A stretch of DNA of 64,000 bases, taken from positions 32,001 through 96,000 of the IMG/VR virus record IMGVR_UViG_2721755486_000001; one strand, given 5' to 3'. Numbering within the stretch: the first letter of the stretch is position 1; each line of letters starts with the position of its first letter. Below the pieces are notes generated by a model. That model was not told the DNA's origin and ran no database searches. It saw only the letters and a list, made by a program, of their open reading frames with translations. This DNA comes from a virus. Taxonomy: Duplodnaviria > Caudoviricetes. Positions 3,230 to 58,424 of the stretch are shown here, piece after piece. Both the position numbers and the translations under genes were made by a program.

Positions 3230-3231
3230 CC

Positions 3232-3693: not shown

Positions 3694-3779
3694 GGCGCGC
3701 ACCGTGGAGCGACCAGGCGGCCATCAGGGCCGCCTGTTGCGTTATGCTGCTGATCCGCTCGATCGCACCATCGCACCGT

Positions 3780-20975: not shown

Positions 20976-21002
20976 CATTCATAAATACGCAAGGTAGCAC
21001 CT

Positions 21003-22625: not shown

Positions 22626-23797
22626 GCAGCATGGTGAGAATACGCGATGTCGTGTCCCAGGATACAGGGACGAGGAATCCCACGCGCCAGCCGGCCGAGA
22701 GCTTCGAATATGTGGACGTTGCTGCGATCAACAACGAAAGCAAGACCATCGAAAGAGCGAAGACACTGTTGGGTGCGGACGCACCCAGCCGAGCGCGACG
22801 CCTAATCCAGGCCAACGACGTTCTGGTCTCAACGGTCAGACCAAACTTGAACGCGGTTGCTCTCGTCCCAGAACGATTGGGCGGGCAGGTGGCGAGTACA
22901 GGTTTCTGCGTGCTTCGCGCAAACGGTCAGGTCCTGCCGCAATATCTGTACTACTTCACTCGTTCTCACGGATTTGTTGAAAACCTGTCGCGCCTTGTTG
23001 CTGGGGCCCTGTATCCAGCAGTCACGGATGGGCAGGTATTGGATCAAGAGATACCGATGGTCTCTCCCGAGAAGCAGAGGGATGTGGTGGAGGCGCTGGC
23101 TGCGGCCGAAAGCATCGTCAGATTGTGCACCGAGGCGTCTGCAAAAACAGCGGAGCTTCTTCCTGTCATGTTCGTCGAAATGTACGGAGATCCGGCGACA
23201 AACCCGAAGGGCTGGCCGTTGCGGCAGGTATCGGATTTCGTCGAAAAGTTCGAGGGCGGGAAGAATCTTCTGGCGGGATCTGAGAACGGGTCACCGTTCC
23301 GTATCTTGAAGGTGAGCGCGGTCACTTCGGGGCGCTACCTGGAAGAGGAAAGCAAACCAACACCGGATGGATACCAGCCTCCCGACGCACACCTGGTGCG
23401 TGTCGGCGACATGCTTTTCTCGCGCGCAAACACAGAGCAACTCGTAGGCGCCACGGCTCTTGTCGAGAGCACGAACGGGCAAACGCTGCTGCCCGACAAA
23501 CTCTGGCGTATCGTGTGGTCCGAGCCGGCGGAGCCCGCGTATATGCACGCCCTGTTCCAATCGCGCTACGTACGTCAAGAACTGAGTCGGATCTCCACGG
23601 GTACAAGTTCATCAATGCGGAACATTTCTCAGGGGCGCCTTTTCGAACTGAGTTTGCCGGTGGCGCCGTACGACGAGCAGAGAGTGTTCGGCGAACGTGC
23701 GACAACGATCAGGTCGATTCAAAGTCAGCGCGCTGCCGCGCTGGAAAAAGCGCAGCAGACCTTTGATGCACTAATGGCAGCGGCCTTTCCGTACTAG
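22622..23797 (+). CDS. hsdS: Type I specificity subunit S
   Basis: Two TRDs joined by FVEMYGDPATNPKGW; ATGA overlap with hsdM. Confidence 0.9.
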   Translation: MSSMVRIRDVVSQDTGTRNPTRQPAESFEYVDVAAINNESKTIERAKTLLGADAPSRARRLIQANDVLVSTVRPNLNAVALVPERLGGQVASTGFCVLRANGQVLPQYLYYFTRSHGFVENLSRLVAGALYPAVTDGQVLDQEIPMVSPEKQRDVVEALAAAESIVRLCTEASAKTAELLPVMFVEMYGDPATNPKGWPLRQVSDFVEKFEGGKNLLAGSENGSPFRILKVSAVTSGRYLEEESKPTPDGYQPPDAHLVRVGDMLFSRANTEQLVGATALVESTNGQTLLPDKLWRIVWSEPAEPAYMHALFQSRYVRQELSRISTGTSSSMRNISQGRLFELSLPVAPYDEQRVFGERATTIRSIQSQRAAALEKAQQTFDALMAAAFPY

Positions 23798-24875: not shown

Positions 24876-26674
<1,799 letters not shown>

Positions 26675-28053: not shown

Positions 28054-30891
28054 TCAGCGCCGCGAGGTGGACGAGGCCGTGGGTCGGCGGTTGGTCTGGC
28101 TGGCCCGCGCTCCGTGGGTGGTCGCAGGCACTGGCGCGTTTCCCCGCTTCCTGGGCTTGTACTTGCAGGCGGGGAAGTTGGAACAGGAACGAAACTCCCC
28201 GTAGGGGCCGGTGCGCAAGACCAGAACCCCTCGTTTGCACGAGGGGCATTCCTCCTCCTGAACGACCTGGCCGTCGGTGTCGGTGATCGACACCGCGCCG
28301 TCCTGCACAAGTTCCCTCAAAAAGCTGGAGCACTGACCGCGTGCCGTGAACATGGCCACGCTGCGCCGTGCCCTGGTCAGGGCCACGTAGAACAGGCGAC
28401 GCTCTTCCCCGTTAGGGTAGTTGTCCCCGGCGGGCATGGCCAACGCCAGTACCGGGTCGTCGGCGCGCGTGTTCGGGAAGCTACGCCCGCGCAGCACGCT
28501 CAGCATTTCCGGCAAGATCACGTAGTCGGCTTCGCTTCCCTTCGATCGGTGGACGGTGAGGAACGACACGTCCACCCAGCGCTCGAAGCGGGCCTTGTTG
28601 GCCGGGACGTACTGCCGATCGGCGTTGTAGCGCCCAAGCACGAAGACCGACACTTTCCCGTCTCGCCCAGGTGGGATGCTGCCGTCTTGGACCCCATGGG
28701 CCAGTTTCATCACGAACTGGGCGATGGCGTCGGCCAGCTTTTCCTTGTTGTCCACTTGGAACGCTTGCAGCATGGGTCCGATGGGCGGGGTGACCGACGT
28801 CACGCGTTTGCTGATCTGCGTTGGGTTCTTCGACACGAACCGGCTGGACACGTCGCACAGCGCCTGGGGGCAGCGGAACGTCTGTTCGAGCTTGAGCACC
28901 TGCCCGTGGCCGAACCATTCCCGGAAGCCGGTCATCACCGACACGTCCGCGCCGGCGAAACGGTTGATGGACTGCCAGTCGTCGCCCACGGCGAACAGGT
29001 ATCGCCCGGGCTTCTGAACCAAGGCGCGGCACAAGCGGGCCCGAGCCCGGGAGGCGTCCTGGAACTCGTCGGCCATGACCAGCTCGTAGGGCGCCTCGTA
29101 ACGACCACTTTCCAGATACTCGGCCGCCAGGTTGAGCATGTCCTCGAAGTCGATGCCGTCCTCGGCCGCCAACGCGGCGTCCCACGCTTTGATGATGGGC
29201 TCGGCGATGTCGAGGAAGAGGCGGTGCCGGTACTTGAACGCATCGTCCGGCAGGGCGTCCAGGCGTTGGCGCAGCGCCGCCGCGTTCAAGCAGTTGCTTT
29301 TGGCGTGGCTGATGAACGTTCTCACCAACGTCACCAGTTCCGCGGGTTCCATGGGCTTCTGACCGCCCGAGGGAATCTCGCGATCCGGGTTGGGGTCGAG
29401 TTCGACGCCCCGGCGGGTCAGCTCGTTGGCGAGGTGCTTGAACACGTCGCCGGTGCGTACCTGGTGCGACGTTGTTTCGATCAGCGCCGTGCCGCGTTCC
29501 CGATGCAACGTGCGTTTCCACTCGACGCCGGCGAGGTAGTCGCCAAAGTGTGGCGGGGCCTTGCCGTTGGCGTCCAGGGCGAAGTGCTCGTGGTACAGAT
29601 CAATGCCCGGGTAGAAGAAGTCCGGGCGGTATTGGCGATAATCCTCGTCGGCGGTCTTGAACTTGTACCGCTCCTCGTAGAGGTAATCCACGCCGTTGTA
29701 AAAGAGCCAGTTGGAGAGGGTGGCCTCTTCTTGGCTGCGCACGCGCTTCCCGTCGGCGGTGAGGGTTCGACCGTTGCCTTGCTCGTCCCAGACGTCCGGT
29801 GTGCCGTTCGATCCGAACGTCGGCAGATCCTTGCCAAACACGAACCGGAAGAGGTCCCATTGCGTTCGGAAGGTGGCGGAGCGGTCCTTGAGCTGATCGA
29901 CGATCTCGGTCAGCTTGCTGATGCCGCCGGCGGCGTCGGTGGCCCAATCCGGGACGTCGGGCTTTTCCTTCGTGGCCTTGCCGATGATGTGAAGGCCCAG
30001 GGCGTGGAAGGTTGAGGCTTCCACCGCGACGTCGTCCATGCCCAGCCGCTCGAACGATTTGGCGGCACGCTCCGCCAGTTCGACGGCGGCCTGCTTGTTG
30101 AAGGCCAGCATGACGATCCGCTTCGGTGCGACGAAGCCCCGGTCGATCGCATAGGCGGCTTTTGCCACCATGGTGGACGTCTTACCCGAGCCGGCCGACG
30201 CAACGACCTGCACGCGGTTGTCGAAGCAGATCACGGCCCGCGCTTGCTCCTCGGTCAGAGGCTTGCGCTCCACCCGGTCGAACAGGTCCTTGCACGCCGT
30301 CAACTCGCGCTTCGTATGGGCCGCGTTGAGGGCGGCCCAGTAGGGGCGATGGTCGGTTTCCCATTGGACGAGGGAACGCTCCATCTCGGCAGCTTCCTGG
30401 CCGAGCCTGGCGTTCACGTTGGCCTTCGTCATGCGCGCACGAATGGCCTTCACGTCGATGGATGGTCGGGCCGCTTCAATGGCCGCCTGGACCTCGTGCG
30501 TGATCCATCGCCGACCGGCTTCTGCAGTCTGCTCTTGCTGGGCCTTGTGGTCCAGCCAATCGAGCACGGTTTGATGAGCGTCACGTAGGAACGCCACGTC
30601 CTCGCGGATTTGCTTCTCGACCAGCGCAGCTTCCACAGCACTGGTCAAATCGGTCCCTCGGGCGTTGGGCAACCCGTCCACCTTCACGACCCGCGAGGGG
30701 CCTGGGTGGAGCGTGACGTCGGTCCAGAACACGCCCGGATTCACCCGGTACGCGCCAGCGTCGTCGATGTTGACGGCGTGCGTTTTTCCATCCACCGTCA
30801 ACGACAGTTTCAAGCCTTCAAGGAAGAGGCGCCAGTCCGGCGATCGTGTCAGTTTTCGGCCCCACGTGGAGGGAGCCCATTCTTTTTTCAT
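28054..30891 (-). CDS. UvrD/helicase IV-like SF1 helicase with inserted nuclease-like domain and C-terminal topoisomerase-type Zn ribbon
   Basis: ASAGSGKT, DEFQD, VGDDWQSINRF, TVHRSKGSE, EERRLFYVALTRAR; insert RSQEE...YRPDF...YHEHF; CPSC...CSNFPAC. Confidence 0.9.
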   Translation of the reverse strand: MKKEWAPSTWGRKLTRSPDWRLFLEGLKLSLTVDGKTHAVNIDDAGAYRVNPGVFWTDVTLHPGPSRVVKVDGLPNARGTDLTSAVEAALVEKQIREDVAFLRDAHQTVLDWLDHKAQQEQTAEAGRRWITHEVQAAIEAARPSIDVKAIRARMTKANVNARLGQEAAEMERSLVQWETDHRPYWAALNAAHTKRELTACKDLFDRVERKPLTEEQARAVICFDNRVQVVASAGSGKTSTMVAKAAYAIDRGFVAPKRIVMLAFNKQAAVELAERAAKSFERLGMDDVAVEASTFHALGLHIIGKATKEKPDVPDWATDAAGGISKLTEIVDQLKDRSATFRTQWDLFRFVFGKDLPTFGSNGTPDVWDEQGNGRTLTADGKRVRSQEEATLSNWLFYNGVDYLYEERYKFKTADEDYRQYRPDFFYPGIDLYHEHFALDANGKAPPHFGDYLAGVEWKRTLHRERGTALIETTSHQVRTGDVFKHLANELTRRGVELDPNPDREIPSGGQKPMEPAELVTLVRTFISHAKSNCLNAAALRQRLDALPDDAFKYRHRLFLDIAEPIIKAWDAALAAEDGIDFEDMLNLAAEYLESGRYEAPYELVMADEFQDASRARARLCRALVQKPGRYLFAVGDDWQSINRFAGADVSVMTGFREWFGHGQVLKLEQTFRCPQALCDVSSRFVSKNPTQISKRVTSVTPPIGPMLQAFQVDNKEKLADAIAQFVMKLAHGVQDGSIPPGRDGKVSVFVLGRYNADRQYVPANKARFERWVDVSFLTVHRSKGSEADYVILPEMLSVLRGRSFPNTRADDPVLALAMPAGDNYPNGEERRLFYVALTRARRSVAMFTARGQCSSFLRELVQDGAVSITDTDGQVVQEEECPSCKRGVLVLRTGPYGEFRSCSNFPACKYKPRKRGNAPVPATTHGARASQTNRRPTASSTSRR

Positions 30892-31067
30892 CGTCTACCC
30901 TGCAATAACCCCGGAAACCGGTCTCGGTCATGCCAGAGACCCGGTCGCGCCATGATAGCCTGACGCTGCTTTGCAGGCGGGCGACGGACGCCATGGTCAT
31001 GCAATGAGCATCTACATCGCTCGTGGCCACAGCATCGAAGGTTGGGTTTTTCGGTTCCTGGCAGGTG

Positions 31068-31742
31068 TCAACCCGGACCGTACAGCCTCTCCTCAATGGC
31101 CGCGTCCAGCCCGGCGACGAAGCGCTCCACGGTGTTGATCGTGGCTTCGAGGGAGGCCTGGCTGACGTGCACCATGGGCGGTGCCAACCAGGTCTGCGCG
31201 TCCGGGTCCAGGCGATCGAGCAGCTCCACCTCGCGGGCGTCCAGGAACACCGAGCGCGCGGCGCCCGGTTTCCGGTCGGCGTGCTTGGGCCGGTTGGTGG
31301 TGATCTCCAGGTCGTGCTGGATGCTGTTGCGCGTCAGCACGATGTCTTCCAGGACGGCGATGGGCACCGGGCCGTCGGCGAACGGGATCTTGAACGCCTC
31401 GGTAAAGATCGTGTCGTAGCCCCGCACCCAGCCCTTCCTGAACACGCGTTTGCGGTCCTCGGGGCTCAGCTCTTCGCAGTGGAGCCTGACGCGCGTTTGC
31501 AGGTACGCCTGCAACGCCGACGCCAGCATGCACAGGCACGCATGGCCCAGGACGTCGATCGAATCGTTGGCCTCCTGCCATTCGACCATGAACGCGGGTT
31601 CCGGGTCCTCCGAGTACGGCGGTACAAAGGGCTCTTCCTCGTTCTCGATCTTGGTCCGGCGTTCGACGAAGGGCGCCGACGAGCGGGCGTAAAGCTGCCG
31701 GATGAAATCCAGGCGTTGGTTCAGAAACCAGGCCACGTCCAT
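31068..31742 (-). CDS. hypothetical protein with HEPN-like RxxxxH motif
   Basis: 224 aa, helical, LTRNSIQH. Confidence 0.55.
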   Translation of the reverse strand: MDVAWFLNQRLDFIRQLYARSSAPFVERRTKIENEEEPFVPPYSEDPEPAFMVEWQEANDSIDVLGHACLCMLASALQAYLQTRVRLHCEELSPEDRKRVFRKGWVRGYDTIFTEAFKIPFADGPVPIAVLEDIVLTRNSIQHDLEITTNRPKHADRKPGAARSVFLDAREVELLDRLDPDAQTWLAPPMVHVSQASLEATINTVERFVAGLDAAIEERLYGPG

Positions 31743-31813
31743 GGCGGTCCCCCGATTGCATGAGTTCGAAACGTTGCGCCCGGCACCTTGACAGCACCGG
31801 GTGCCGTGTCCGC

Positions 31814-33340
31814 TTACGCGGTTGCGCGCGCCTTCTTTTTCTTGACGTATTCGTCAACGAAAGCCTTGATGCCCTCGCTTCGTGGGAAAGCCTTCTTCGC
31901 CTCGGCGGGCGCGACGATGCCCGCGTCGAGGAGACTGGCCAGCCCATCCTTCCACCGTGTGAGGAGTTTGTCGTTCAGGAACTGTTCGATCTGCTCGAAC
32001 GTGGCCACGTTGTCGATCGGCGCGCTGGTAGCCACGTACAAATCGGCGACCACCTTGTTCCCATCCTTGGACGGGAGGGGTGTGGTGGCTGCAATGGCGA
32101 TGATGCGGGCCAGCAGGTCCGCCTCCATGTCCGTCCCGCCACCCGCGCGCATGGTGCTCATGAACACGTTCATAACGTCGGCGCCATACGTGCCGCAAAT
32201 CAGCAGCGCGTCCTCGCTGTACTTCAACAACAGTTCGGGTTCGGTGTAGCTGGGATGGTAGATCAAGCGGCGATAGCCCTGGGCGTAGGCGCTCTCGATC
32301 GACGGCAAGAAGGGCAGTTGCCGGATCGCTTCTGGCACGTCCCAGTCCTTCGATGGCGTCGAGCGGTGGCGCGCCATGATGCGGGCGGCCGGACCGGCGT
32401 GCTCGGTCAGCGCCAATGAGGCCGCCACGAGGTCCATCGCGGAATGTTCGGCGATGACGGCGGACCCGAACAGCAACAAGCCGTTCGTACGTTCGGCGAG
32501 CGCATCACGCAAAGGTCCAACGAGCGGCGTCGGCAAAGCGTCGGCGGTTCCCGCCGGCGTGACCGGTTCTATCGTGGGCCATGCTCCGGAGAACGGCACG
32601 CGCGCTTGCAACTCGCCCTCGTCGGTGACGACGCCGATCAGTGCCGTTTCTTCGTCCACGTGCCCGTCCCTGGACGTGACCATGAGCCGAACGTCCTCGT
32701 GGAGCATCTCGGGCGTCGGGGTGTCGAGCAGTACCGCGACACGATGCCCCGAGTCCAGCGCGTACCGGCAAGCGGTTTCAAGACGGCTCGCAGTTCCATC
32801 CCAGGATTGCTGGTCGAGTTCGAGAGGGCCGACCACCAGCAACGTACCGCTGGGCACACGATCCAGGCCGGACGACCAGAGGCCGTATTCGCCCAGGTCG
32901 ATGGCGCTGGACCATCCGTTGCCGGCGCGTTCGGCGTAGAGCAGCGCGCCGTCGGTGGCGTCCTCGTACACCTCCAATAGGGCGTCGATCGCCTTCTGGG
33001 AGGTCGCGATATAGACGCCGGGAACGGGACCCGACGGCCAGATCTGCGGGGCCCCGCGGGCGACGACCGCACCGGGCGGCGACAGCGCGACAAGCAACTC
33101 CTGCGGCGACATGTCGACCGCGAAGCGCTTCTTCAGGCGGAACGCCAGGCGGCCGGTTGAGGTGGTGTCCAGCTCGGCGGCGGCGACGCGCTCGGGGAAC
33201 GCCATCACCTCGGGCCAGTTACGAAGCCCGGGCAGCGCTGCGATCAGGTCGAGCGCCTGGCCATGACCAAGGGAGGGGTGCGTGGGCTGCAAAAGGCCGC
33301 GGACGAGCCCGGCCAGCAGCTTCAACTGCTGCGTATCCAT
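31814..33340 (-). CDS. Glyoxalase_8-like N-terminal domain protein, possible degenerate P-loop/PilT-like C-terminus
   Basis: LGHGQALDLIAALPGLRNW N-terminus; GGAG RBS; no intact Walker A. Confidence 0.6.
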   Translation of the reverse strand: MDTQQLKLLAGLVRGLLQPTHPSLGHGQALDLIAALPGLRNWPEVMAFPERVAAAELDTTSTGRLAFRLKKRFAVDMSPQELLVALSPPGAVVARGAPQIWPSGPVPGVYIATSQKAIDALLEVYEDATDGALLYAERAGNGWSSAIDLGEYGLWSSGLDRVPSGTLLVVGPLELDQQSWDGTASRLETACRYALDSGHRVAVLLDTPTPEMLHEDVRLMVTSRDGHVDEETALIGVVTDEGELQARVPFSGAWPTIEPVTPAGTADALPTPLVGPLRDALAERTNGLLLFGSAVIAEHSAMDLVAASLALTEHAGPAARIMARHRSTPSKDWDVPEAIRQLPFLPSIESAYAQGYRRLIYHPSYTEPELLLKYSEDALLICGTYGADVMNVFMSTMRAGGGTDMEADLLARIIAIAATTPLPSKDGNKVVADLYVATSAPIDNVATFEQIEQFLNDKLLTRWKDGLASLLDAGIVAPAEAKKAFPRSEGIKAFVDEYVKKKKARATA

Positions 33341-33554
33341 TGCTTTCTCCAGGGCGGTAAATCCGGTGCACGCTTTGCGGACCGCCCATCGAAAACAAGG
33401 ACTATGGAATGGGGTGGGTGCGGTGGAACATCGTCTTCGTCATGCCCCGGAGGGCGCGTGCGGCAGGCGACGACAGCCTGGGCACACTATAGCAGGAAAA
33501 ATGCGCCCATCCGCACCGCTCAAAGGTGCTCGCGCACGCAACGCCGGCATCGGT

Positions 33555-34838: not shown

Positions 34839-35288
34839 TCAGGCCCGCACGCGTACCCGGGTGGCGAGCACCTGGCGCAGGTTCCAGGTGACCACGCCCC
34901 ATACGGTCATTTCCTGGGCGTCGGAGAACACGATGGGCGCGTAGGCCGGGTTGGCCGCCACCAGCTTCACGATCCCCCCGCGGCGGTACAGGCGCTTGAC
35001 CGTGAACTCCCCATCGACGCACGCGAGCACGATCAGGCCGTGCTTCGGCTCGATCGAACGGTCCACCACCAGCTTGTCCCCGTCCCAGATCCCGGCCCCG
35101 CTCATGCTGTCGCCCTCGACGTTGAACAGGAAGGTCGACAGCGGGTTGAGGACCAGCACGTCGTTCAGGTCGATGCGACGCTGGGCGTGGTCCTGGGCGG
35201 GGCTGGGGAAGCCCGCCGGCACGCGCGAAAGCGCCTCGACGATGAAAAGAGCGGCCGGGTCCTCGGCGAGGGGGACGGGGTGGTTCAT
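34839..35288 (-). CDS. umuD: UmuD/S24 peptidase subunit
   Basis: VPAGFPSPAQD, VEGDSM, FTVKRL. Confidence 0.95.
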   Translation of the reverse strand: MNHPVPLAEDPAALFIVEALSRVPAGFPSPAQDHAQRRIDLNDVLVLNPLSTFLFNVEGDSMSGAGIWDGDKLVVDRSIEPKHGLIVLACVDGEFTVKRLYRRGGIVKLVAANPAYAPIVFSDAQEMTVWGVVTWNLRQVLATRVRVRA

Positions 35289-35301
35289 GGTGATGCAAAT
35301 A

Positions 35302-35317
35302 CTGTATGGATATACAG
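35302..35317. promoter_or_regulatory. LexA (SOS) box
   Basis: CTGT-ATGGATAT-ACAG, 13 bp upstream of the umuD start. Confidence 0.9.
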
Positions 35318-35517
35318 TCTAGCAGGTGAGGTTGCCGTTGGGGAGGTCGACGTGATCGCGACATCCCTGTGGCACCGGGGCTTTTGATTACAATCGTCGG
35401 ACATAGGGTGGGGCTGACGACACGGCTTGGCAGCCCCGCAATGCGTGCCGTTGCGCGAGGGCGGGAGAATCCTGTGCGCTGCGGTGGCGCCCAAAACGAC
35501 AACAGACGGGAGCGGTT

Positions 35518-37368
35518 TTGAGCATTCAAACGGTTTCGGGGTCGCAGTTCGCCAGAATGTTTTGCCTTCGCCCAACGCAATACGCATGGCTTTTGGGGGC
35601 GGGTGCTTCAGCCGCTGCGGGAATCCCCACCGGCTATGCGATGATCACCGACTTCAAAAAGCGGATTTTTTGTGATCTGTCCGGGGCCAAGCTCAAGGAG
35701 GTTGATGCTGACGATCCGCTCTGGATCCAACGCATCGACACGTTCCTTGCGTCACGCTCGGTCCTCCCGCCGCCGAACGATCCCACGGAGTACGCCGCGG
35801 CATTTGAGGCGGTCTACCCAACACCGCAGGACCGGCGAAACTACATCAGCCTGGCGGTGCAAAAGGGCACGCCGTCCTACGCGCACCGGGTGCTTGCAGG
35901 GTTGATCACCACCGGTCGCGTCCCTTGCGTGTTCACGACCAACTTCGACAGCCTAGTGGAAACCGCGGCGACGGTGACCGACCAGCTCGTGGCTCCCGAT
36001 GACCGCGCTAACCTGTCGGTGTCGGGGATCGACAACGCGGAACGTGCGATGCACGCCCTCGGCGAGAGCCGCGCGCTCTTGGCGAAGATCCACGGCGACT
36101 ATCAGTCGGTCAGCCTGAAGAACACCACCGACGAACTGCGTGAGCAGGACGCGCAAATGCGTACGGTCCTGACAAGTGCTTGCGGTCGGTATGGCCTGAT
36201 CGTGGTCGGCTACAGCGGGCGCGACGCTTCCGTGATGAATGCTCTGAACGATGCCCTGGCCCAGCCCACGCCGTACCCCGCGGGGATCCATTGGGTAACC
36301 CGATCGACCGACGGATTGTTGCCGGACGTCCGGGCCTTTCTCGAGGCCGCGGCGGCCAAAGGCGTGCGGGTCACGGTCGTCGAGTGCCAGACGTTCGACG
36401 AGTTGGCGGCAGACATTGCCGATGGTTCGACGTGGCCGCAGCAGCTCGACGCCCACATCGGGTCGTTCGCTCCGCCCAGCGTGGTTAGACCGGTGCCGTT
36501 GCCAACCAAGGAGCACAGCGCTTTCCCCATTCTTCGTTGCTCGGCCATCCCAGTGCTGGAGATGCCGAGGGTGGCGAGGCGCATCACGCTGGAGCGGAGC
36601 GTGACCACGCCGGATGCTCGTCAGATGCTGAGGGACGCCGACGTGTGGGCGATCGTCGCCAGCAGAGGAAAGGAAATAGCCGCGTTCGGGAATGACGAAG
36701 AGCTGGCTCGTGCCTTCGGACCAGCGGGCGGGCGGCTCGACGGTACGGTCAACCTGGCACCCGCCGACGACAGTTGGGCGCTCGGACTGCTATACGACGC
36801 TTTGACGCGAGCCGTCTGCCGAAATCGTCCGCTGAGGGTGCGCTGGCGGCGCAGTGGTCATGCGGTGATGGTTCGAGGTGACTCGGACAAGGAAACGCCG
36901 CAAGCGCGCGAGACGCGGTTGGCCCGGCAGGCCAGACTGCGGAACGCGTATTCGAGCGCGCTATACGGGAAGACGCCTCAGGGGTACCCCTTCCAGGAAG
37001 GGGTAGAGCTTCACCTGGAGCAGGCTGCCGATCGCTGGTGGTTGACGTTCGAGCCGGCCACGTTCGTCGACGTCCCTTATCCCGAACCCGCACAGGATCG
37101 CCCAGACACCGAAACTAGCCTTGACCGTCCGCGCTTCGTCGACCCCACCATCGACTGGCGGCGGGAGCGATGGGCTCAGCGCTACAACCACGTTTGGTCG
37201 GCCATCATCGACGCGTGGGCCGATACGCTGGCGGGCGATGGGAGCCGCGTTCTGCTGACGACGGGCGTTCCCCAGGACGAAGGCATCGACGCCGTGTTCA
37301 AGGTTTCGCCCATCACGGCGTGGAGCCGTCCGAGCCATGAGCATGCGTACTTCCAAAGGAACCAGTGA
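35518..37368 (+). CDS. SIR2-APAZ NADase effector of a short-pAgo system (SPARSA type)
   Basis: LLGAGAS...GIP, TTNFD, KIHGDY and VGYSGRD sirtuin motifs; ~280-aa C-terminal region; stop overlaps the pAgo start; TTG start with GGGAG RBS. Confidence 0.88.
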   Translation: MSIQTVSGSQFARMFCLRPTQYAWLLGAGASAAAGIPTGYAMITDFKKRIFCDLSGAKLKEVDADDPLWIQRIDTFLASRSVLPPPNDPTEYAAAFEAVYPTPQDRRNYISLAVQKGTPSYAHRVLAGLITTGRVPCVFTTNFDSLVETAATVTDQLVAPDDRANLSVSGIDNAERAMHALGESRALLAKIHGDYQSVSLKNTTDELREQDAQMRTVLTSACGRYGLIVVGYSGRDASVMNALNDALAQPTPYPAGIHWVTRSTDGLLPDVRAFLEAAAAKGVRVTVVECQTFDELAADIADGSTWPQQLDAHIGSFAPPSVVRPVPLPTKEHSAFPILRCSAIPVLEMPRVARRITLERSVTTPDARQMLRDADVWAIVASRGKEIAAFGNDEELARAFGPAGGRLDGTVNLAPADDSWALGLLYDALTRAVCRNRPLRVRWRRSGHAVMVRGDSDKETPQARETRLARQARLRNAYSSALYGKTPQGYPFQEGVELHLEQAADRWWLTFEPATFVDVPYPEPAQDRPDTETSLDRPRFVDPTIDWRRERWAQRYNHVWSAIIDAWADTLAGDGSRVLLTTGVPQDEGIDAVFKVSPITAWSRPSHEHAYFQRNQ

Positions 37369-38816
37369 CCATGGACTACAACCTTTCGAAGGCGCCATCG
37401 TTTTCCTTGCTGGACGAGCCGGCCCTCACGTTTAACAGCGAAGACACAGACCTCGACGAGAACCCGCTGCGCGGCCTTTTGCGTTTCGGTGCCTACAACG
37501 GCAAGACGTTCGAGGGCTACACCCCGAAGCTTCGTGTCGCGACAATCGCCCCTGCATCAGGTTGGCCGAAGCTCAAAGGCTTGGTGGACACGATCCGATC
37601 AGGTCACGAGGCGAGCGACCGGCGCAACTACGTGCCGTCGTTCCCCGGATTTGAAAACCTGTTTCGCGTTCCGCTCGTCGCGGGGCCGAAGGACGTGCAC
37701 ATTAAGTGGCCCGACGATCTCATGGCCCTGGCGCGTACTGGGGCGCCCCATGAGCGGTTGTTTTCGGCGATGTCGGAAGCCATGGCGCGTCTCGATGCGT
37801 TGCACGATCAGTTTGATGTCGTCTTGGTACATCTCCCTGATGCGTGGGCAACGGCATTCACGGCCAACGGATTCGACGCCCACGACGCGTTGAAGGCCCT
37901 TGGAGCCCGGTACGCCATCCCAACGCAGGTCATCAACGATCGCGTTTTCACATTCCGGCTCAAGGCGTCGTTGGCCTGGCGCCTGGCCATCGCGCTCTTC
38001 ACCAAGGCGGGCGGCATTCCCTGGAAACTCGCGCCGATGGTCGGTGTACCAGAAGACACGGCCTATATCGGTCTCGCCTACGCGTTGCGCGGGGACCCCA
38101 AGTCCGCGCAGTTCGTCACGTGCTGCTCGCAGGTGTTCGACGCGGACGGCGGTGGCATGCAGTTCGTCGCTTTCGAGGCCAAGGAGCAGGTGGCGGATCC
38201 GCGCGAAGCCAGACGGAACCCGTTTCTCAGTCGGAGCGACATGCGGGCGGTAATGGCACGTAGCCTGAGCCTCTACCTTGGGCGTAATGGTGGACGGCTG
38301 CCGCGACGTCTCGTCGTCCACAAAACGACGTCGTTCAAGGACGAAGAACTCCAAGGCGTTTTCGACGGCCTGTCGACGGTTCCAGAGGTGGAGTGCATCG
38401 AGATCGGCAGCAGCGCCACATGGCGTGGCGTGTGGCTGAAGCAGGGAAAGAAGGGCGGACCCAAAAGTGTGCCTGATCGAGCGCCGGTGCCGCGGGGAAC
38501 TGTCCTCACGCGAACGGACCGGTCGGCGCTGTTGTGGGCATCGGGCAATGCCCCGTCGGCAGCGCTCAGCGGTGCCTTGTTTTTCCAGGGAAGCAAGAGC
38601 ATTCCGCGCCCGCTCAACATCATCCGTCACGCGGGCAGCGGTCCGCTGGAAGTTGCTGCGTTGGAAACCCTCGCGCTGACCAAAATGGACTGGAACAACG
38701 ACGCGTTGTACGACCCGGTTCCGGTGACCATTCGCTATTCGCAACGGCTCGCACGTACCATCGCGAATGTGCCAGATCTTCCGGGGCATGCGTACCCCTA
38801 TCGCCTCTTCATGTGA
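37365..38816 (+). CDS. ago: short prokaryotic Argonaute (MID-PIWI, catalytically inactive)
   Basis: 483 aa; HDALK...IPTQ...KAGGIPW MID signature; YIGLAY and VVHKT replace the catalytic Asp motifs; RGT, LTKMDWN, PVTI, YRLFM end. Confidence 0.92.
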   Translation: MTMDYNLSKAPSFSLLDEPALTFNSEDTDLDENPLRGLLRFGAYNGKTFEGYTPKLRVATIAPASGWPKLKGLVDTIRSGHEASDRRNYVPSFPGFENLFRVPLVAGPKDVHIKWPDDLMALARTGAPHERLFSAMSEAMARLDALHDQFDVVLVHLPDAWATAFTANGFDAHDALKALGARYAIPTQVINDRVFTFRLKASLAWRLAIALFTKAGGIPWKLAPMVGVPEDTAYIGLAYALRGDPKSAQFVTCCSQVFDADGGGMQFVAFEAKEQVADPREARRNPFLSRSDMRAVMARSLSLYLGRNGGRLPRRLVVHKTTSFKDEELQGVFDGLSTVPEVECIEIGSSATWRGVWLKQGKKGGPKSVPDRAPVPRGTVLTRTDRSALLWASGNAPSAALSGALFFQGSKSIPRPLNIIRHAGSGPLEVAALETLALTKMDWNNDALYDPVPVTIRYSQRLARTIANVPDLPGHAYPYRLFM

Positions 38817-38821
38817 CTGCT

Positions 38822-39595
38822 ATGTCGAGCCTGACCTCACGTGATCGCCGTTGCCTAGAACCGTTCCTCGACATGGGCAGCGGTCTCGTGCTCAACTTTT
38901 CCGACCGAACGATGGGTGAGTTCTTCCAGGAACAGGTTGGCCTCAACATCTACGACGAGAAGTACCAGTTCAAAGGCACGTCCAAGGCCAAGCGGATGCG
39001 TGCCTTCTGGGAGCTGGAGTCCGACCACACGGTCGCTCGGGCGCTCGACGCGCTGATCGAATGGGGTGAGGAGTTTCGATGCTTGCCGGACGACCCGCAA
39101 CAGCGGGCCGCCGTCGAGGCGATCATTGCCCGGCTGAAACTCAGCAGTCCGGTCCCCGAGGTTGACGCCTTTACGGCGAGCGTCAACGCTCTGGACTTCA
39201 CCGCTGCGGCGAAGCACATTCGGGCCGCGATCGAGGCGAACGAGCCCGCCACGGCTTTGGACCGCGTACACGTCTTCATGATGAAGTTCTTGCGGACGCT
39301 CTGCGAGCGACGCGGCATTGCCGTCACGCGCGAGAAACCGTTGCACAGCCTGATGGGTGAGTACGTGAAGCACCTGCGTGGCTCCGGTCAGATCGAAAGC
39401 GAAATGACCGAGCGGATCCTCAAGACCAGCATCTCGACCCTGGAAGCGATGAACGCGGTTCGCAACGACCAAAGCCTGGCGCACGACAATCCCATGCTGA
39501 ATCACGACGAGGCCGTTCTGATCGTCAGCCACATCGGTGGCCTTGTCCGTTTTCTCAAAACCATCGAAGCGAAGACCCAGGCCAGCCAGTCATGA
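38822..39595 (+). CDS. abortive-infection family protein (AbiJ-like N-terminus plus Abi_C/HEPN C-terminus)
   Basis: MGSGLVLNFSDRT...GTSKAKRMRAFW; VRNDQSLAHDN (Rx6H); starts 5 bp after the ago stop. Confidence 0.75.
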   Translation: MSSLTSRDRRCLEPFLDMGSGLVLNFSDRTMGEFFQEQVGLNIYDEKYQFKGTSKAKRMRAFWELESDHTVARALDALIEWGEEFRCLPDDPQQRAAVEAIIARLKLSSPVPEVDAFTASVNALDFTAAAKHIRAAIEANEPATALDRVHVFMMKFLRTLCERRGIAVTREKPLHSLMGEYVKHLRGSGQIESEMTERILKTSISTLEAMNAVRNDQSLAHDNPMLNHDEAVLIVSHIGGLVRFLKTIEAKTQASQS

Positions 39596-40113
39596 CCACC
39601 CAGAAGACCTCCAAACGCGGCGAGTTCAACCCCAACTGGCCAGTGCCCGACGATTACCTGCTCGAACTCGGGCGCATGGTGAGCGTGTGGGGCTCCCTCG
39701 AATCGACGACGGCGGTCGCGATCTCGAAACTGGCCGGCTACGAGTCGCCGACCGACATCCGCGCGTTGGCGATGGTGGCGCACAGCAACTTCCAGCAGCG
39801 GGTGGACATCGTAAGCTCCCTGTGTGGGCAGCTCGTGGATCAGGTGCCTCATTTAAAGGACTACGAGGCCGTCATCAAGAAGGTACGGGCGGCCCAGGCG
39901 GGGCGCAACAAGTACGCGCACAACGCGCTTTCTCTGGACGAGGATGGTCTGGTTCACATCGCATACATGTCGGCCCGCGGCACCTTCAAGACCAACGTTG
40001 AGATCGTGCGGGTCGCCGACATCAAGGAGGTCACCGCCAAGATCCACGAAGCGGCGGTGGCGCTGCATGGATTGATCACCAATACCGCAACCAAACCCAT
40101 GTGGGAGCGCTGA
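39592..40113 (+). CDS. stand-alone HEPN-like protein
   Basis: LGRMVSVWGSLE...GRNKYAH (Rx4H); ATGA overlap with the upstream gene. Confidence 0.65.
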   Translation: MTTQKTSKRGEFNPNWPVPDDYLLELGRMVSVWGSLESTTAVAISKLAGYESPTDIRALAMVAHSNFQQRVDIVSSLCGQLVDQVPHLKDYEAVIKKVRAAQAGRNKYAHNALSLDEDGLVHIAYMSARGTFKTNVEIVRVADIKEVTAKIHEAAVALHGLITNTATKPMWER

Positions 40114-40152
40114 GCGCAGGTTGGGCAACAGCGTTGGCGGCTTGGGCGGAGG

Positions 40153-40869
40153 TCATCGGCGTTTGCTCAAGCGCAGCGTTCGAAGGCAGCGCCTCCACCA
40201 GGCCCTCTTCGGGTAGGGGGCCGGCAGGTTGCGGAAGCGGAAGGGGGTCCCGCTCTCGGGGGCTTCCAGGAAGATCCGCAACCCGATGTTGCCTGGGCGC
40301 GGGTCCGTCTCCTCGAAGATCCGCTCGAAGTCCGCCTGCGCCACCGGGTCCGGGCGACCGTCGGGCCACTTCGCGAACGCGTGGACGATGACCGCCGAAT
40401 GCGGTTCGATCCCGCCGGTGCGCTGGGCCCGGGGGACGGCGACGGGTTCGCGGTAATAGGTCGGCTGGTGGTACGCGTCGCCTTGGAGCGCGAGGTAGAA
40501 CAGGTTGCGCCAGTGCTCCTCGTGGTCGTCGGCGATCCGGCGGTGGACCTTCACGCCGATCTCGCGCTTCAGCGCCTTGTACGTTTCCAGGTTGCGGGCG
40601 GCCGTCAGCCAGTTCAACCGGTTGGGCGGGACCGGGGCGGTCTGGGTGCCGTCAACGGTCAGGGCGTTGTACGCGCGTTCGAGCGCTCGCACGGCCTGGT
40701 CGAGCAGCGCCGCGCTTTTCTGGTAGCGCAACGGGCGGGTGATGGCGAAGACCGAGATGAGCACGGTCACCACCGGCACGGCACCGGCCAGCAGCCGCAG
40801 CTCGCCTTCGGTGAGGTGCTCGATGAACGACATCACCGCCGTCCACGTGTGCGACAACCACGCGATCAT
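40153..40869 (-). CDS. hypothetical protein with N-terminal membrane anchor
   Basis: GGAGG RBS; ATGA overlap with the upstream nuclease; TM segment LLAGAVPVVTVLISVFAI. Confidence 0.65.
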   Translation of the reverse strand: MIAWLSHTWTAVMSFIEHLTEGELRLLAGAVPVVTVLISVFAITRPLRYQKSAALLDQAVRALERAYNALTVDGTQTAPVPPNRLNWLTAARNLETYKALKREIGVKVHRRIADDHEEHWRNLFYLALQGDAYHQPTYYREPVAVPRAQRTGGIEPHSAVIVHAFAKWPDGRPDPVAQADFERIFEETDPRPGNIGLRIFLEAPESGTPFRFRNLPAPYPKRAWWRRCLRTLRLSKRR

Positions 40870-41711
40870 GCCCGACCTCCGGGTGCGGGCACGCTCAGCG
40901 CGACGGGCGCGAGGTCCACGCTCAGGCGGTACTCCATGAGCTGAACGCGCGGGGCGACCTTGCCGGCGTATTTCAGCTTGTCGGAGATCGAGTTCGCCAC
41001 GATCACCCCGGACACGGTCTTGCCCTTGGCCACGTGGTGCTCGATCCACCCCATGTAGCGCTGCACCTGACCCAGCGCGGCGTCCGGCCCCCGGCCCAGC
41101 TTCAGCTCGAACACCACGAAGTTCCCCTCGCGATCCAGGAACACGAGGTCGGCGGGCCCGCAATCGGTCTGGTACTCCACGCCGTCCCGTCCGTCGGCGT
41201 CGACGAACAGGGTGAGGGGGCCGTGCGTGGTGGTGCTGGGCGGGTTCCGCGCCAGGTAGTCCCGCAGGTGGCTCTCGAGCGCGAACGCTCCACCGCCGAA
41301 CCCATCGTCCACCGGCTCGGCGGTGTCGATGTCGGGCGTGGCGGGCACCTCTTCGGTGGAGTCGTCCACGCGGCGGACCTTCAACCCCTCGGGGGTCTCC
41401 TCGATCGACCACAGGCCGTGCTTGTCAGGGTCGTACCAGACGACCTTGCCGCGCCCGGTGGCGTAGAGGAAGTCGTACGGCCCGTTGGCCAGGCGGGGTT
41501 TCTTGTTCTCCGGGTAGTGCACCCGGCTCGGGCGGTTGACCGTGCAGATGACGATCTGACAGTTCACCGTTCCCACGTTCAGGTCGGGGTAGTCCTGAGC
41601 CAGGATCTGCCGGATCTCGGCGTTGCTGATCTCACGGCCCAGGCCGAGCGGCTTCACCGCGTCGCGGATCAGTTGCCAGATGGGCGGGCGGTTGGTGGGG
41701 GTGGTGCTCAC
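40866..41711 (-). CDS. NucS/EndoMS-like PD-(D/E)xK endonuclease with N-terminal winged-helix-like domain
   Basis: ESHLRDYL...GVEY...GPADLV...VVFELK...GQVQRY; GTG start with GAGGG RBS. Confidence 0.8.
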   Translation of the reverse strand: MSTTPTNRPPIWQLIRDAVKPLGLGREISNAEIRQILAQDYPDLNVGTVNCQIVICTVNRPSRVHYPENKKPRLANGPYDFLYATGRGKVVWYDPDKHGLWSIEETPEGLKVRRVDDSTEEVPATPDIDTAEPVDDGFGGGAFALESHLRDYLARNPPSTTTHGPLTLFVDADGRDGVEYQTDCGPADLVFLDREGNFVVFELKLGRGPDAALGQVQRYMGWIEHHVAKGKTVSGVIVANSISDKLKYAGKVAPRVQLMEYRLSVDLAPVALSVPAPGGRA

Positions 41712-41864
41712 GGCTCGGGTCCCTCGCGTTGGTCTTGTCGCTGGGCGCCACGCCCAGGCAGGCACCGATTGAACCACGTCGCATCGTGCGGGCACCAGCG
41801 GAAAAGTGTTGCTCTCGGTCGCTGCGCGAACCACCCCCGGGGCTGGAGGCCCGGGCGGGGACAA

Positions 41865-41923
41865 CCGGTGCTGACGCCGATGAGGCCGCAGGCGGGGTTC
41901 GTGCGCAGGAGCCCCCGGCTCCG
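41865..41923 (+). repeat. structured intergenic repeat, copy A (B at 51671-51732, C at 54063-54123)
   Basis: GTGCTGACGCCGATGRGGCC-GNA-GGC...GGAGC-loop-GCTCC. Confidence 0.8.
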
Positions 41924-42006
41924 AGGTCTTGCACGGGACACCGTCGACCCGGACGGAAGAGGGGTGCCGTTGCACCCCTTAGCCCCGCGCCCGGCGAACC
42001 GCTGGG

Positions 42007-44529
42007 CTACACCGTCGTCGGCACCGCGATCACCGGCGGCACCACCGGCGTCACCGTCACGACCTCCGGCACCATGCGGAGCTGGTTCGGCGTGAACGTC
42101 CGGTAGCGTCCGGTCCACAGCTTGCCGCGACGGTAAAGGAAGCGCCACGTGCTCGGCGCTGCCAGCAGGGCCTTGACCCGGTGGTGGTCGGCCGGGTTCT
42201 TCGCACGCACCACGAAGCCCGACGCCCACAGGAAGCGCCCACCGAGTTGCCCGGGGGTCACGTCAACCGGCGTCATCGGGCCGTCCACCATGCACGGCAC
42301 CAGCAGCAGACACTCGTTCGGGTCGAACGCGTAGAGCCCCTGCTTGCGCCCGTAGGCGTGCCACGCCTCGTAGCCGCGCAGGTCGCCCCCGTCGCGTGCG
42401 TGCAGCAGGTCCGAGTGGCCACGGAACCAGTCCAGCACCTCGGGATCGAGCTGCGCCTCGGGCACCACCTTCAGCTCCGCGTCGTACGGGCAGAGCATGC
42501 GGTGGGCGTGCTGGACGTCGGCGAGCGTCTCGGTCTTGGTCAGCTTCAGGAACAGCGGGGCGTCCTGCAACGGCAGGCGCACCTCGCGCCCGTGGCGGTT
42601 CGTCGCACGCACCGCGTCACCGTCGACCGTCCAGTTCTCCACCACGTACGCCCCGTTGGCGTTGGTGTTCACCCCCACCAGCACCTCGGCGAGTTCGTCC
42701 AGCGTGGTGGCGTCGGGGTCGATCGCGTCCCCGGGCATCGCCGGGTCCAGCGCCCACGCAGCCGGGCCCATCGCTTCGTCGCTCTGGCGGAACGCGACCG
42801 TCCACGGGGTGTCGCTCTCGTGCGGCATGTCCGTGCGGAACAGCACCGGTGCCTGGGTGGCCGGGCCGGTCACCACGATCGCGGTCAGCACGCTCGCCCC
42901 CAGCGGCCCGAGGAAGACGCGGCGGTGCTCGAAGTCCACCACCGAGCGGACACGCGGGCGCAGCAGGTTGCGCAGGGCCGTCCCGGCCTTGGTGCGCATC
43001 CACGCGTTCGGGGCGATCACCACCGAGCGGTCCGACTGGCTCTGCGCCTGCTCGATGAAGGCCTGGTAGAGGTCTGCCATTCCCTTCGCGCAGGTGCTGA
43101 ACGACGCGCGCACGCGCTTTGCGTAGTCCTTCGGCAGCTTGCCCAGCCCCACGTACGGCGGGTTGGCGATCGTCACGGAGAACGTGCCGGGCCAGCCGTC
43201 GAACAGGGCATCCCCGACGCGGGCGTTCAGCTCCGACGTCACGCCGTGCTCGGAGAAGAACGTGCGGTAGAGCGTGCGGAGATCTTCGACCGCCTGACCG
43301 TCCAGATCACCGACGAACAGCTTCTGCTCGCAGTAGCGCGCGACCTGCTCGTGCGTCAGGCCACGGGCCAGCCAGTGGGCGACGATGGCGAACACGATCG
43401 ACCCACGGCCGCACGACGGCTCCAGCACCGTTTCGTGGGGCTGCAGGCGGGCCAGCTCGACCATCGCGCTCGCCAGCTCGAACGGGGTGTAGACGACCCC
43501 GCCGACCATGCGCCCCTGGGCGTCCATCCCCGACGCGCGGACCAGCTCGGCGATGCGCTCGTACACCGCCGGGATCGTCATGGGCGCGACGGCAGGCTCC
43601 GCCACCGGCTCGGTCGGCGAAACGGCGGCCGGTTCCTCGACGGCCGGCTGGACCACCACCTCGGCGACGTCCGCGAACCAGTCGGTGGCGGCGAACAGGC
43701 GGTCGACCACGGCGGTCTCGTAGGCCCGCACCATCTCGCCGTTGGCGATGCTCGGGTTCCCGGCGACGCAGGCCTTGATCGGGGACCAGTCCACGGCTTC
43801 GAAGAGCGCGCGGACCTCGGCGACCCGGTTGCGGTCGGTCACGCGCACGAGGCGGTGGGAGTTCTTGCTCAGGTGCTTGGCGTCGAGGTCCTTCACCGCG
43901 CCGGCGTTCACCCCGATGCGCTGGATCGCGAAGTCGGCGGTGTCGCGCTGGGCGTACGGCACGAACGCGAAATCCGCGTGCGTGGTGGGCAGCACGATCA
44001 GCGCGCGCTGCTCGTCGCGGCGCTCCCACACCTGGAAGACCGTGGGCACCGCGGCCGGCTGGCCCTCGAAGATGAACGCGTCGAGCGGCAGCACCTCCTC
44101 GTGGACGAGGTGGAACGCGCGGGCGAGCTTGTTCTGGACCGACGGTTTTTGCCACGAGCGCGGCACGATGAACGCGATGCGTTCGGCGCCCAGCTCGGCG
44201 CAGCGGTTGAAGAACGCGACGTCGTGCTTGAACGGCGGGTTGCCCACCACCACGAGCGGGCGATCGTCACCGGTCGGGGGCGTCCAGTTAAGGAAATCCG
44301 CCTGAACGGCCCCCGGGCACTTCGGGTCGAGGTCCACCCCGAGGGCGTCCTCGGGCAGCAGCGAGAGGAATGCCCCGGTGCCGCACGACGGCTCGAGCCA
44401 GCGCACGCCGTGCGACCAGCGATCACCGAGGTGGTCGGCGATCAGCTCGTCGAAAAGGCGTTGAGCCAGTTGGGGGTTGGTGTAAAACTGGTCGAGATCA
44501 CGACCGATGGAGTTGCGTTGGGTCTTCAC
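42007..44529 (-). CDS. orphan tandem DNA amino-methyltransferase (two MTase domains plus TRD-like region)
   Basis: Domain 1: DQFYT, LEPSCGTG, GNPPF. Domain 2: GVVYTP, LEPSCGRG, ANPPY. No nuclease motif seen. Confidence 0.85.
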   Translation of the reverse strand: MKTQRNSIGRDLDQFYTNPQLAQRLFDELIADHLGDRWSHGVRWLEPSCGTGAFLSLLPEDALGVDLDPKCPGAVQADFLNWTPPTGDDRPLVVVGNPPFKHDVAFFNRCAELGAERIAFIVPRSWQKPSVQNKLARAFHLVHEEVLPLDAFIFEGQPAAVPTVFQVWERRDEQRALIVLPTTHADFAFVPYAQRDTADFAIQRIGVNAGAVKDLDAKHLSKNSHRLVRVTDRNRVAEVRALFEAVDWSPIKACVAGNPSIANGEMVRAYETAVVDRLFAATDWFADVAEVVVQPAVEEPAAVSPTEPVAEPAVAPMTIPAVYERIAELVRASGMDAQGRMVGGVVYTPFELASAMVELARLQPHETVLEPSCGRGSIVFAIVAHWLARGLTHEQVARYCEQKLFVGDLDGQAVEDLRTLYRTFFSEHGVTSELNARVGDALFDGWPGTFSVTIANPPYVGLGKLPKDYAKRVRASFSTCAKGMADLYQAFIEQAQSQSDRSVVIAPNAWMRTKAGTALRNLLRPRVRSVVDFEHRRVFLGPLGASVLTAIVVTGPATQAPVLFRTDMPHESDTPWTVAFRQSDEAMGPAAWALDPAMPGDAIDPDATTLDELAEVLVGVNTNANGAYVVENWTVDGDAVRATNRHGREVRLPLQDAPLFLKLTKTETLADVQHAHRMLCPYDAELKVVPEAQLDPEVLDWFRGHSDLLHARDGGDLRGYEAWHAYGRKQGLYAFDPNECLLLVPCMVDGPMTPVDVTPGQLGGRFLWASGFVVRAKNPADHHRVKALLAAPSTWRFLYRRGKLWTGRYRTFTPNQLRMVPEVVTVTPVVPPVIAVPTTV

Positions 44530-44584
44530 GAGGTCCGCTCCGAAGTGGATGGACCTCTACTTTTTTCTCCCACACCTCCGTAGC

Positions 44585-57944: not shown

Positions 57945-58424
57945 ATGCGCAACACCACCGGCGGCGATCGGCCGCAAACCTCGACCCCGCGAGCGGGGAT
58001 TCGCACGGCCCATTTCTGGGCCGCCCTCTACGCGGGGCTGATGCTCATCACCCTGATGGTCTGCGCGCTCGGCGCGAGAACGTTCTTCGCCCGGTACGAC
58101 GACAATGCGCTGGTCATCGGCCTGGCGGTGCTGGCCTGCACGCTGTTGCTCGACCACGCGGACCGAAGGCTCCGCGAGCAGGGCCGTCGACTGCACCGCG
58201 TGAACGCCTACATCACCGGCTTCTCGAGCCCGATGCTCATGGGCGTTCTGGCATCTTGGCTCGTCGCCCCCCAGGCCATACACCTGGCCGCGGCGGGCTG
58301 GTCGGACAACCTGCACCTGCTGGTCGCCAACCTCGCGGTGCTCTGGACCGGCGTGACGGTCGTGCGGCTGTTGCAGGACCCGCACCCGGACCTGCGGGGC
58401 GGGTTCTTCCGGACGGGACGTTAG
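57945..58424 (+). CDS. membrane protein (about four TM helices)
   Basis: Hydrophobic segments; operator at 57882 upstream. Confidence 0.65.
   Translation: MRNTTGGDRPQTSTPRAGIRTAHFWAALYAGLMLITLMVCALGARTFFARYDDNALVIGLAVLACTLLLDHADRRLREQGRRLHRVNAYITGFSSPMLMGVLASWLVAPQAIHLAAAGWSDNLHLLVANLAVLWTGVTVVRLLQDPHPDLRGGFFRTGR

Follow-up and report, generated by a model that had tools for sequence, protein, structure and literature searches.

The SPARSA system of Geobacter, in which a short prokaryotic Argonaute (pAgo) is paired with a SIR2-APAZ protein, is described as biochemically complete with two genes (PMC11452484), and short pAgos are reported to lack the DEDX tetrad (PMC10474274). According to the account given in PMC3710099, HEPN genes are often embedded within other defense operons, and the AbiJ architecture consists of a variable N-terminal domain followed by a HEPN domain, which is read there as a sensor joined to an RNase; the AbiJ NTD1 exemplar comes from a Burkholderia. 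In the case of HepS, encoded by the prophage Gifsy-1, a single HEPN protein is reported both to sense and to kill (PMC13043305). Here we describe a locus of four genes (g1 to g4) in a 64,000-nt stretch of DNA, positions 32,001 to 96,000 of the IMG/VR virus record IMGVR_UViG_2721755486_000001 (hereafter the window), in which a SPARSA pair (g1 and g2) is followed directly by a gene that fits the AbiJ type (g3) and by a member of an unannotated family, probably also encoding a HEPN protein (g4).

We suggest that these genes constitute a composite, horizontally mobile chromosomal defense operon, in which three self-sufficient immune modules would be read from one transcript. In the first module, the short pAgo, carrying 5'-phosphorylated RNA guides, would sense invading DNA, upon which the SIR2-APAZ protein would deplete NAD+. 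In the second, the N-terminal domain of g3 would presumably serve as the sensor and the HEPN domain as a suicidal RNase. The third module, g4, would most likely act in the manner of single-protein HEPN abortive-infection (Abi) systems such as HepS. The operon would have arisen within a single Burkholderiaceae lineage, when SPARSA and a umuD-proximal promoter region were attached, start codon to stop codon, to the upstream end of a pre-existing g3-g4 cassette; since then the block has been inherited as one unit. We assign a probability of roughly 0.6 to this reading, i.e. SPARSA, an AbiJ-type Abi gene and a solo HEPN Abi gene that are co-transcribed and mechanistically independent.

The four open reading frames (ORFs; Table 1) are co-oriented and arranged head-to-tail, as an earlier note on this DNA, made from the sequence alone, had reported. 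The junctions described in that note are also found in the sequence: g1 and g2 share a 4-nt overlap (GTGA, 37365-37368), a 5-nt gap (38817-38821) separates the g2 stop codon from the ATG of g3, and g3 and g4 overlap by 4 nt (ATGA, 39592-39595). Translation of g2 might instead begin at an in-frame ATG at 37371. Both motifs singled out in the note are present as well, RNDQSLAH from residue 214 of g3 and RNKYAH from residue 105 of g4. The R-x4-6-H string alone is no evidence of a HEPN domain, because it also occurs four times in g1 and four times in g2. The operon region has a G+C content of 62-64% versus 68% for the replicon. A consensus scan of positions 35000-40600 for promoters and terminators was uninformative: it returned no promoter-like sites and five terminator-like sites, against 4.7 expected from shuffled sequences.

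The first two genes are a textbook SPARSA pair: they adjoin each other, the SIR2-APAZ protein is full-length, the pAgo has MID and PIWI domains only, and the SIR2 N and H residues are in place. The g1 product matches the PADLOC model Aga_SIR2-PNTD1-PNTD2 over residues 15-606 (3.7e-212) and the Pfam family SIR2_2 (4.3e-13), and it aligns over residues 8-573 with PDB chain 8in8_B (1.6e-53). The g2 product matches the PADLOC model pAgo_I over residues 8-483 (1.8e-203) and aligns along its full length with 8in8_C, the Geobacter short pAgo (1.7e-99). The catalytic SIR2 residues of the Geobacter enzyme are given as N142 and H186 (PMC11452484), and N142 and H192 of g1 align with them, in agreement with the earlier claim that these two residues are intact. 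From these matches, g1 is predicted to be the NADase effector and g2 the guide-binding sensor of the system. Judging from the full-length similarity to the Geobacter pAgo and from the statement on short pAgos in PMC10474274, the DEDX tetrad is probably absent from the PIWI domain of g2.

For Geobacter SPARSA, PMC11452484 assigns the binding of the guide 5'-phosphate to H166, I182 and a cation, the latter coordinated by N434 and the C-terminal M473, and the reading of the 5'-A to F158 and D164. An alignment mapped by hand places H173, V189, N444, the C-terminal M483, F165 and D171 of the window pAgo at these positions, and R190 has no clear counterpart in this mapping. The retained residues suggest that the window pAgo is of the 5'-phosphate-guide type, and no adaptation to 5'-OH guides was found. 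This bears on one idea of the earlier note, namely that the HEPN proteins could generate guides. In this scenario the short pAgo would be supplied with transcript fragments cut by g3 or g4, comparable to the role of Agap-HEPN beside AmAgo. For that precedent, the dependence of guide loading on a HEPN RNase encoded together with the pAgo is described in PMC11162769, where guide biogenesis of short pAgos is said to be unstudied. However, the same source states that HEPN cleavage yields 5'-OH ends and that AmAgo is specific for 5'-OH guides. Moreover, most relatives of the window pAgo have no HEPN neighbor (g3 is found in 4 and g4 in 5 of 80 loci), which is not the clade-wide conservation to be expected of a guide maker. 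Because the window pAgo appears to keep the 5'-phosphate pocket, guide generation is disfavored; it is the least likely of the ideas put forward in the note, and we consider it exceedingly improbable.

The third gene fits an AbiJ-type Abi protein with a C-terminal Abi_C HEPN domain, which is predicted to act as an RNase. Residues 175-245 match the Pfam family Abi_C with 52.5 bits (cut-off 24; 5.3e-14). The 564 homologous clusters encode proteins of 250-285 aa, annotated as 'abortive infection family protein' where they are named, and R214, N215 and H221 are invariant in an alignment of 27 family members. The AlphaFold2 (AF2) model (predicted local distance difference test, pLDDT, 81.9) consists of an N-terminal helical domain (approximately residues 1-107) and a C-terminal helical bundle. 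A Foldseek search of the PDB with this model returned nothing at E<=0.001, and the weaker rows include HEPN proteins. Residues 1-170 match no Pfam family, and g3 as a whole matches no PADLOC model.

The fourth gene belongs to a family that has remained without annotation. No family in Pfam, NCBIfam or PADLOC was matched above threshold; below threshold, matches to Csm6 and CARF_HEPN were recorded (E 0.012 each). A word-seeded search gave 95 clusters of relatives, all 'hypothetical' where named, and a profile search gave 720 representatives, nearly all of 160-180 aa, with no name beyond 'hypothetical'. Among 40 relatives there were five weak, sub-threshold Pfam matches, of which four were to HEPN families. 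In an alignment of 26 sequences R105, N106, K107 and H110 of the RNKYAH motif are invariant, as are E37, D55, R57, H64, Q68, Q69 and R70. The AF2 model (pLDDT 90.4) is a helical bundle with a three-stranded insert at residues 112-138. Foldseek found no PDB match for it at E<=0.001. With the exhaustive structural aligner VIA-align, many HEPN domains appeared in the top rows (2hsb and 1wwp, Z 6.7; 3o10 and 4rgp, 6.2; 7ae2, 5.6; 9oik, 5.5), at Z scores of 5.4-6.7 that lie below the safe level for helical bundles and are common among unrelated bundles. The family profile searched against PDB sequences gave a single chance-level row (E 0.11). In the ESM Atlas only unnamed clusters were found, the nearest named entry being MtlR at 0.79, which is below the level counted as more than a lead. 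In our view g4 is probably a HEPN-superfamily RNase of an unannotated family consisting mostly of stand-alone small proteins.

The association of the HEPN genes with SPARSA was surveyed in 80 loci encoding pAgo relatives (62-99% identity) with 10-kb flanks. By tblastn, both g3 and g4 follow the pAgo gene in four loci (L002-L005, pAgo 90-99% identical), and g4 without g3 follows it in one (L009, pAgo 72% identical). Neither gene is found in the remaining 75, ten of which have less than 1.3 kb of downstream sequence and cannot be judged. Profile hidden Markov models of both families, applied in six frames to the same loci, recovered the same four (g3) and five (g4) cases. Thus the expectation that the HEPN genes follow close homologs of this pAgo is borne out for every relative of at least 90% identity, but it fails for the next relatives, at 88% and 78%, beside which neither gene is found, and for most of the sample. 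The proposal of a four-component system fares similarly: the fused operon exists in one lineage, but it is not the general form of SPARSA. As the HEPN genes are mostly absent beside pAgo relatives and the pair also exists without SPARSA (see below), we read the locus as a lineage-specific operon fusion and not as a general four-component SPARSA.

The genes that follow pAgo in other loci are heterogeneous and include HamA, a reverse transcriptase, an OLD-like ATPase, nSTAND3, pP_pnuc and others. A HamA-domain gene (Hachiman) lies approximately 110-165 nt after the pAgo stop codon in the alphaproteobacterial loci L054, L062 and L064, which were covered by the domain scan; ORFs of the same size (288 aa) occupy this position in L065, L069 and L072. 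In a Bradyrhizobium SPARSA locus (L076, 7211-8083) another third gene was found, whose product matches Pfam pP_pnuc_1 and pP_pnuc_2 ('predicted pPIWI-associating nuclease'). An hhalign comparison of this protein with the g4 family found nothing.

A comparison at the nucleotide level showed that L004, L005, L085 and the window share a segment which begins at 35161-35255 and ends at 40113-40115, i.e. at the g4 stop codon. As the same block is followed by three unrelated downstream flanks, the four genes are inherited as a unit within one Burkholderiaceae clade. A gene pair encoding a NucS_C/DUF7669 protein and an Eco57I-type methyltransferase follows the block in five of the eight four-gene loci, and it also follows g3-g4 in L090. 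The latter locus is flanked at either end by the same island backbone as in the window (30237-33498 and 40151-44566), with UmuDC and SPARSA replaced by genes for a STAND-like AAA ATPase of 467 aa and a protein of 349 aa (L090 3337-5923). These two genes stop 22 nt short of g3; homology to the window sets in again precisely at the start codon of g3, and a gene for an IS3-type transposase (IS, insertion sequence) is located between g3 and g4. A faint Csx3-like stretch was seen in the 349-aa protein.

In the g4 tree, the SPARSA-bearing L088 and the SPARSA-free L090 are sisters (support 100/99), the free-standing g3-g4 pair of L129 branches off at the base of the Burkholderiaceae g4 clade as a whole, and the g4 of L009 groups with solo copies (94/88). 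In the pAgo tree, every four-gene locus falls in a 9-row clade (100/99), which also holds the Massilia locus L006, lacking both HEPN genes. The sister group of this clade, L007 and L008, likewise lacks them, and L009 lies across a 100/99 branch from the window clade. The simplest history suggested by these topologies is that a pre-existing g3-g4 cassette gained SPARSA upstream and that the two were separated again at least once.

The 229-nt spacer between umuD and g1 contains an SOS (LexA) box-like palindrome close to the umuD start, which is included in the co-inherited four-gene block at its left edge. The sequence CTGT-N8-ACAG occurs approximately 205-218 nt upstream of g1 in five of the eight four-gene loci and in none of the seven other SPARSA loci checked, and it is also kept in four-gene loci where no UmuD was detected. 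This putative box might place the operon under SOS control. In a rhizosphere metatranscriptome, one contig bridges the ago/g3 junction (38487-39236) and another the g3/g4 junction (39542-39801), at approximately 94-97% identity. The RNA data consist of assembled contigs only, which give neither transcript ends nor levels, are uninformative for uncovered parts and might include carried-over DNA; the bridging contigs are compatible with co-transcription in a relative.

Both HEPN genes also occur away from SPARSA. The g4 gene was found in 10 of 397 genomes of the same family, the window's own included. The other nine comprise three with SPARSA-g3-g4, one with SPARSA-g4, one with a free-standing g3-g4 pair, one with g4 and a g3 remnant and three with g4 alone. 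In a sample of 401 genomes of the order, only the window's own genome carries it. Among 29 metagenomic g4 loci, two have all four genes. SPARSA is lacking in a third, where an IS3-type transposase gene stands between g3 and g4, and a fourth, a contig of 1 kb, includes the end of g3. Neither SPARSA nor g3 is seen in the remaining 25, of which 15 have less than 3 kb of upstream sequence. In L115 a g3 gene and a g4 fragment occur, again without SPARSA. Of the plasmid records, 400 match g3 and only eight match g4. One annotated plasmid context was examined, and there the g3 relative closes the run of genes on its strand. Neither SPARSA nor g3 accompanies the g4 relatives in the two records of Pseudomonas syringae plasmids that were read. 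A P. syringae plasmid gene upstream of a g4 relative was considered as a possible g3 homolog and rejected, since it is not a g3 relative.

HEPN enzymes are generally dimeric. We considered whether g3 and g4 might form a regulated pair, toxin-antitoxin-like or a heteromeric HEPN enzyme, in which the g3 RNase is kept in check or completed by g4 and SPARSA is a mere neighbor. The free-standing pair of L129 has the same 4-nt overlap as the window, and L090, L115 and L127 contain the pair, or what remains of it, in the absence of SPARSA. Both findings speak for such a unit, as does the dimeric nature of HEPN enzymes. However, the g3-family genes of the 400 plasmid records lack an adjoining g4, g4-family genes mostly occur without g3, and the transposase gene of L090 splits the pair. 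The two family profiles are also dissimilar (hhalign probability 0.3%). We find this explanation very unlikely.

In place of a constant partner, g4 relatives have various neighbors, which show no mutual similarity across the other loci, i.e. no conserved partner is apparent. Several of them are defense genes: OloA/OloB, PDC-M02A/B, a type IIG restriction-modification (R-M) fragment and PDC-S68. In L130 (8001-11960) and L089 (8001-10065) the g4 relative lies 8 nt upstream of OloA/OloB (Olokun) and is itself preceded by an unannotated protein of approximately 173 aa. In L091 (4172-6345) it lies 13 nt after PDC-M02A/PDC-M02B, a candidate defense system. It seems that g4 favors the edges of defense operons in general.

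The view that the modules are independent has to be weighed against several observations, which point instead to a functional extension of SPARSA, in which at least one of the HEPN proteins works jointly with the pAgo complex or downstream of it, e.g. as a second abortive effector when NAD+ depletion has been countered or has begun. All three junctions are tightly coupled and leave no space for separate promoters. The four-gene block is intact across approximately 80-94% nucleotide identity and, in the eight loci in which it was found, stands before three unrelated downstream flanks (in five, two and one loci) while ending exactly at the g4 stop codon, so that selection may keep the four genes together. 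The metatranscriptome contigs across the ago/g3 and g3/g4 junctions add a weak hint, subject to the same possible DNA carry-over. In addition, L009 represents a second SPARSA architecture, with g4 directly 3' (27 nt after the pAgo stop codon) and without g3. Since the L009 pAgo does not belong to the window clade and the L009 g4 clusters with solo copies, two independent SPARSA-g4 juxtapositions of a rare gene appear more parsimonious than one. A further point against the view of three self-sufficient modules concerns g4 itself, whose proposed RNase activity is based on a motif, on modest Z scores of a kind common for helical bundles and on sub-threshold sequence matches. Finally, HEPN RNases embedded in R-M, Pgl and TerD operons have been proposed to act when the primary defense fails (PMC3710099), and the earlier suggestion of a back-up effector is compatible both with our data and with this published view.

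On the other hand, the HEPN genes are missing from 75 of the 80 loci, including those whose pAgo is 88% and 78% identical, and the g3-g4 cassette and each of its genes occur without SPARSA. The g4 gene adjoins several unrelated defense systems, hence its adjacency is not specific to SPARSA, and for the same reason the junction in L009 carries less weight. We therefore regard a functional extension of SPARSA as unlikely, and favor stacked, independent modules.

A broader hypothesis about g4 may be formulated from its distribution. Members of this family might be portable solo HEPN RNases placed at the ends of diverse defense operons (SPARSA, at least twice independently, Olokun, PDC-M02 and restriction-modification), where they would serve as a generic fail-safe triggered by a condition that the primary system either brings about or is unable to avert. 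For SPARSA, the trigger could be the collapse of NAD+ or its reversal by phage NAD+-restoring enzymes. We think this hypothesis quite unlikely to be correct.

The earlier note had placed the locus on a plasmid. The window corresponds to G000:C1:1905597-1969596, in which C1 is a contig of 4.38 Mb, the others being of 3.39 Mb and 177 kb. Because C1 carries the only strong DnaA match of the genome (214.8 bits), the locus is chromosomal. The related argument, that an anti-plasmid system residing on a plasmid implies self-tolerance, thus fails as stated, although the locus does lie in a mobile island resembling an integrative conjugative element. The window looks like the cargo of a large element of this type, forming a defense island (Table 1). 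A VirD4/TraG-like gene is located 31 kb past the end of the window (C1:2000834), and a tyrosine integrase gene 23 kb further (C1:2024231), i.e. approximately 55 kb past the end. Ankyrin proteins are also encoded in the window. IstB-type matches with identical scores were found at C1:1931809 (the IS21 element of the window) and at C1:3108521, which suggests at least two copies of the element on the chromosome.

Table 1. Coordinates of the four-gene locus and of other features in the window
Feature	Position	Strand	Remarks
g1, SIR2-APAZ	35518-37368	+	616 aa from TTG start; ATG at 35557 possible
g2, short pAgo (MID-PIWI)	37365-38816	+	483 aa
g3, AbiJ-type abortive-infection protein	38822-39595	+	257 aa
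g4, RNKYAH protein of unannotated family	39592-40113	+	173 aa
SOS (LexA) box-like palindrome	35301-35319	.	in 229-nt umuD-g1 spacer, ~217 nt upstream of g1
umuD (part of UmuDC)	34839-35288	-	divergent from g1
NucS_C/DUF7669 protein and Eco57I-type methyltransferase	40866-44529	-	converge on g4; PADLOC PDC-S02, 5.7e-25 (NucS_C/DUF7669 protein); methyltransferase 840 aa
NarE-like domain	2889-4268
Topoisomerase with Toprim domain	7326-9494
ArdA	13055-14023
Type I R-M system	18834-23797
IS21 element	24876-26674
GajB/UvrD-like helicase	28054-30891	-
GmrSD	58421-60271	-

The literature on pAgo, HEPN and SPARSA, in the parts of the articles consulted, gives no sign of a HEPN-extended SPARSA operon; supplementary gene lists may include such cases. 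If the modules are independent, the locus provides a natural example of defense genes shuffled at exact gene boundaries and stacked in one transcript on a mobile island. The g4 family, unannotated and probably of HEPN type, is a candidate single-gene defense, and might be the more interesting by-product of the locus. Should the modules cooperate instead, the operon would represent the first case of a short-pAgo system equipped with accessory RNases, with implications for the way in which systems that deplete NAD+ are provided with a back-up against phage counter-measures.

Compared with known systems, the first half of the operon closely resembles the SPARSA of Geobacter sulfurreducens (PDB 8IN8/8Y80): both proteins are full-length matches, the genes overlap, and the SIR2 N and H and most of the residues of the 5'-end pocket are shared, whereas the window operon has two more co-oriented genes after pAgo. 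AmAgo with Agap-HEPN, as described in PMC11162769, likewise combines a pAgo with a co-encoded HEPN RNase. However, AmAgo is long, catalytically active and specific for 5'-OH guides, and its HEPN partner is conserved across the AmAgo clade, while the window pAgo is short and apparently of the 5'-phosphate type, with HEPN genes confined to one shallow clade. With the AbiJ family (Abi_C), as characterized in PMC3710099, g3 shares a C-terminal Abi_C HEPN domain with the invariant R-N-x5-H and a separate N-terminal domain; it differs in that this N-terminal domain matches no Pfam model, and in being the third gene of a pAgo operon instead of a solo or R-M-linked gene. HepS (PDB 9oik), according to PMC13043305, is a small HEPN protein that stands alone and is carried by a mobile element, to which g4, probably a HEPN protein as well, is comparable. 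The g4 model superimposes on it with a root-mean-square deviation of 3.7 over 106 residues at 15% identity and with Z 5.5, a score common for helical bundles, but g4 has no detectable sequence relationship to HepS, and the three-stranded insert is its own. The HEPN genes reported from R-M, Pgl/BREX and TerD operons (PMC3710099) ride on another defense operon in the same manner, as do the g4 relatives beside Olokun, PDC-M02 and R-M genes; unlike them, the host operon here is that of an Argonaute, and the g4 family could be matched by name to none of the families in that account.

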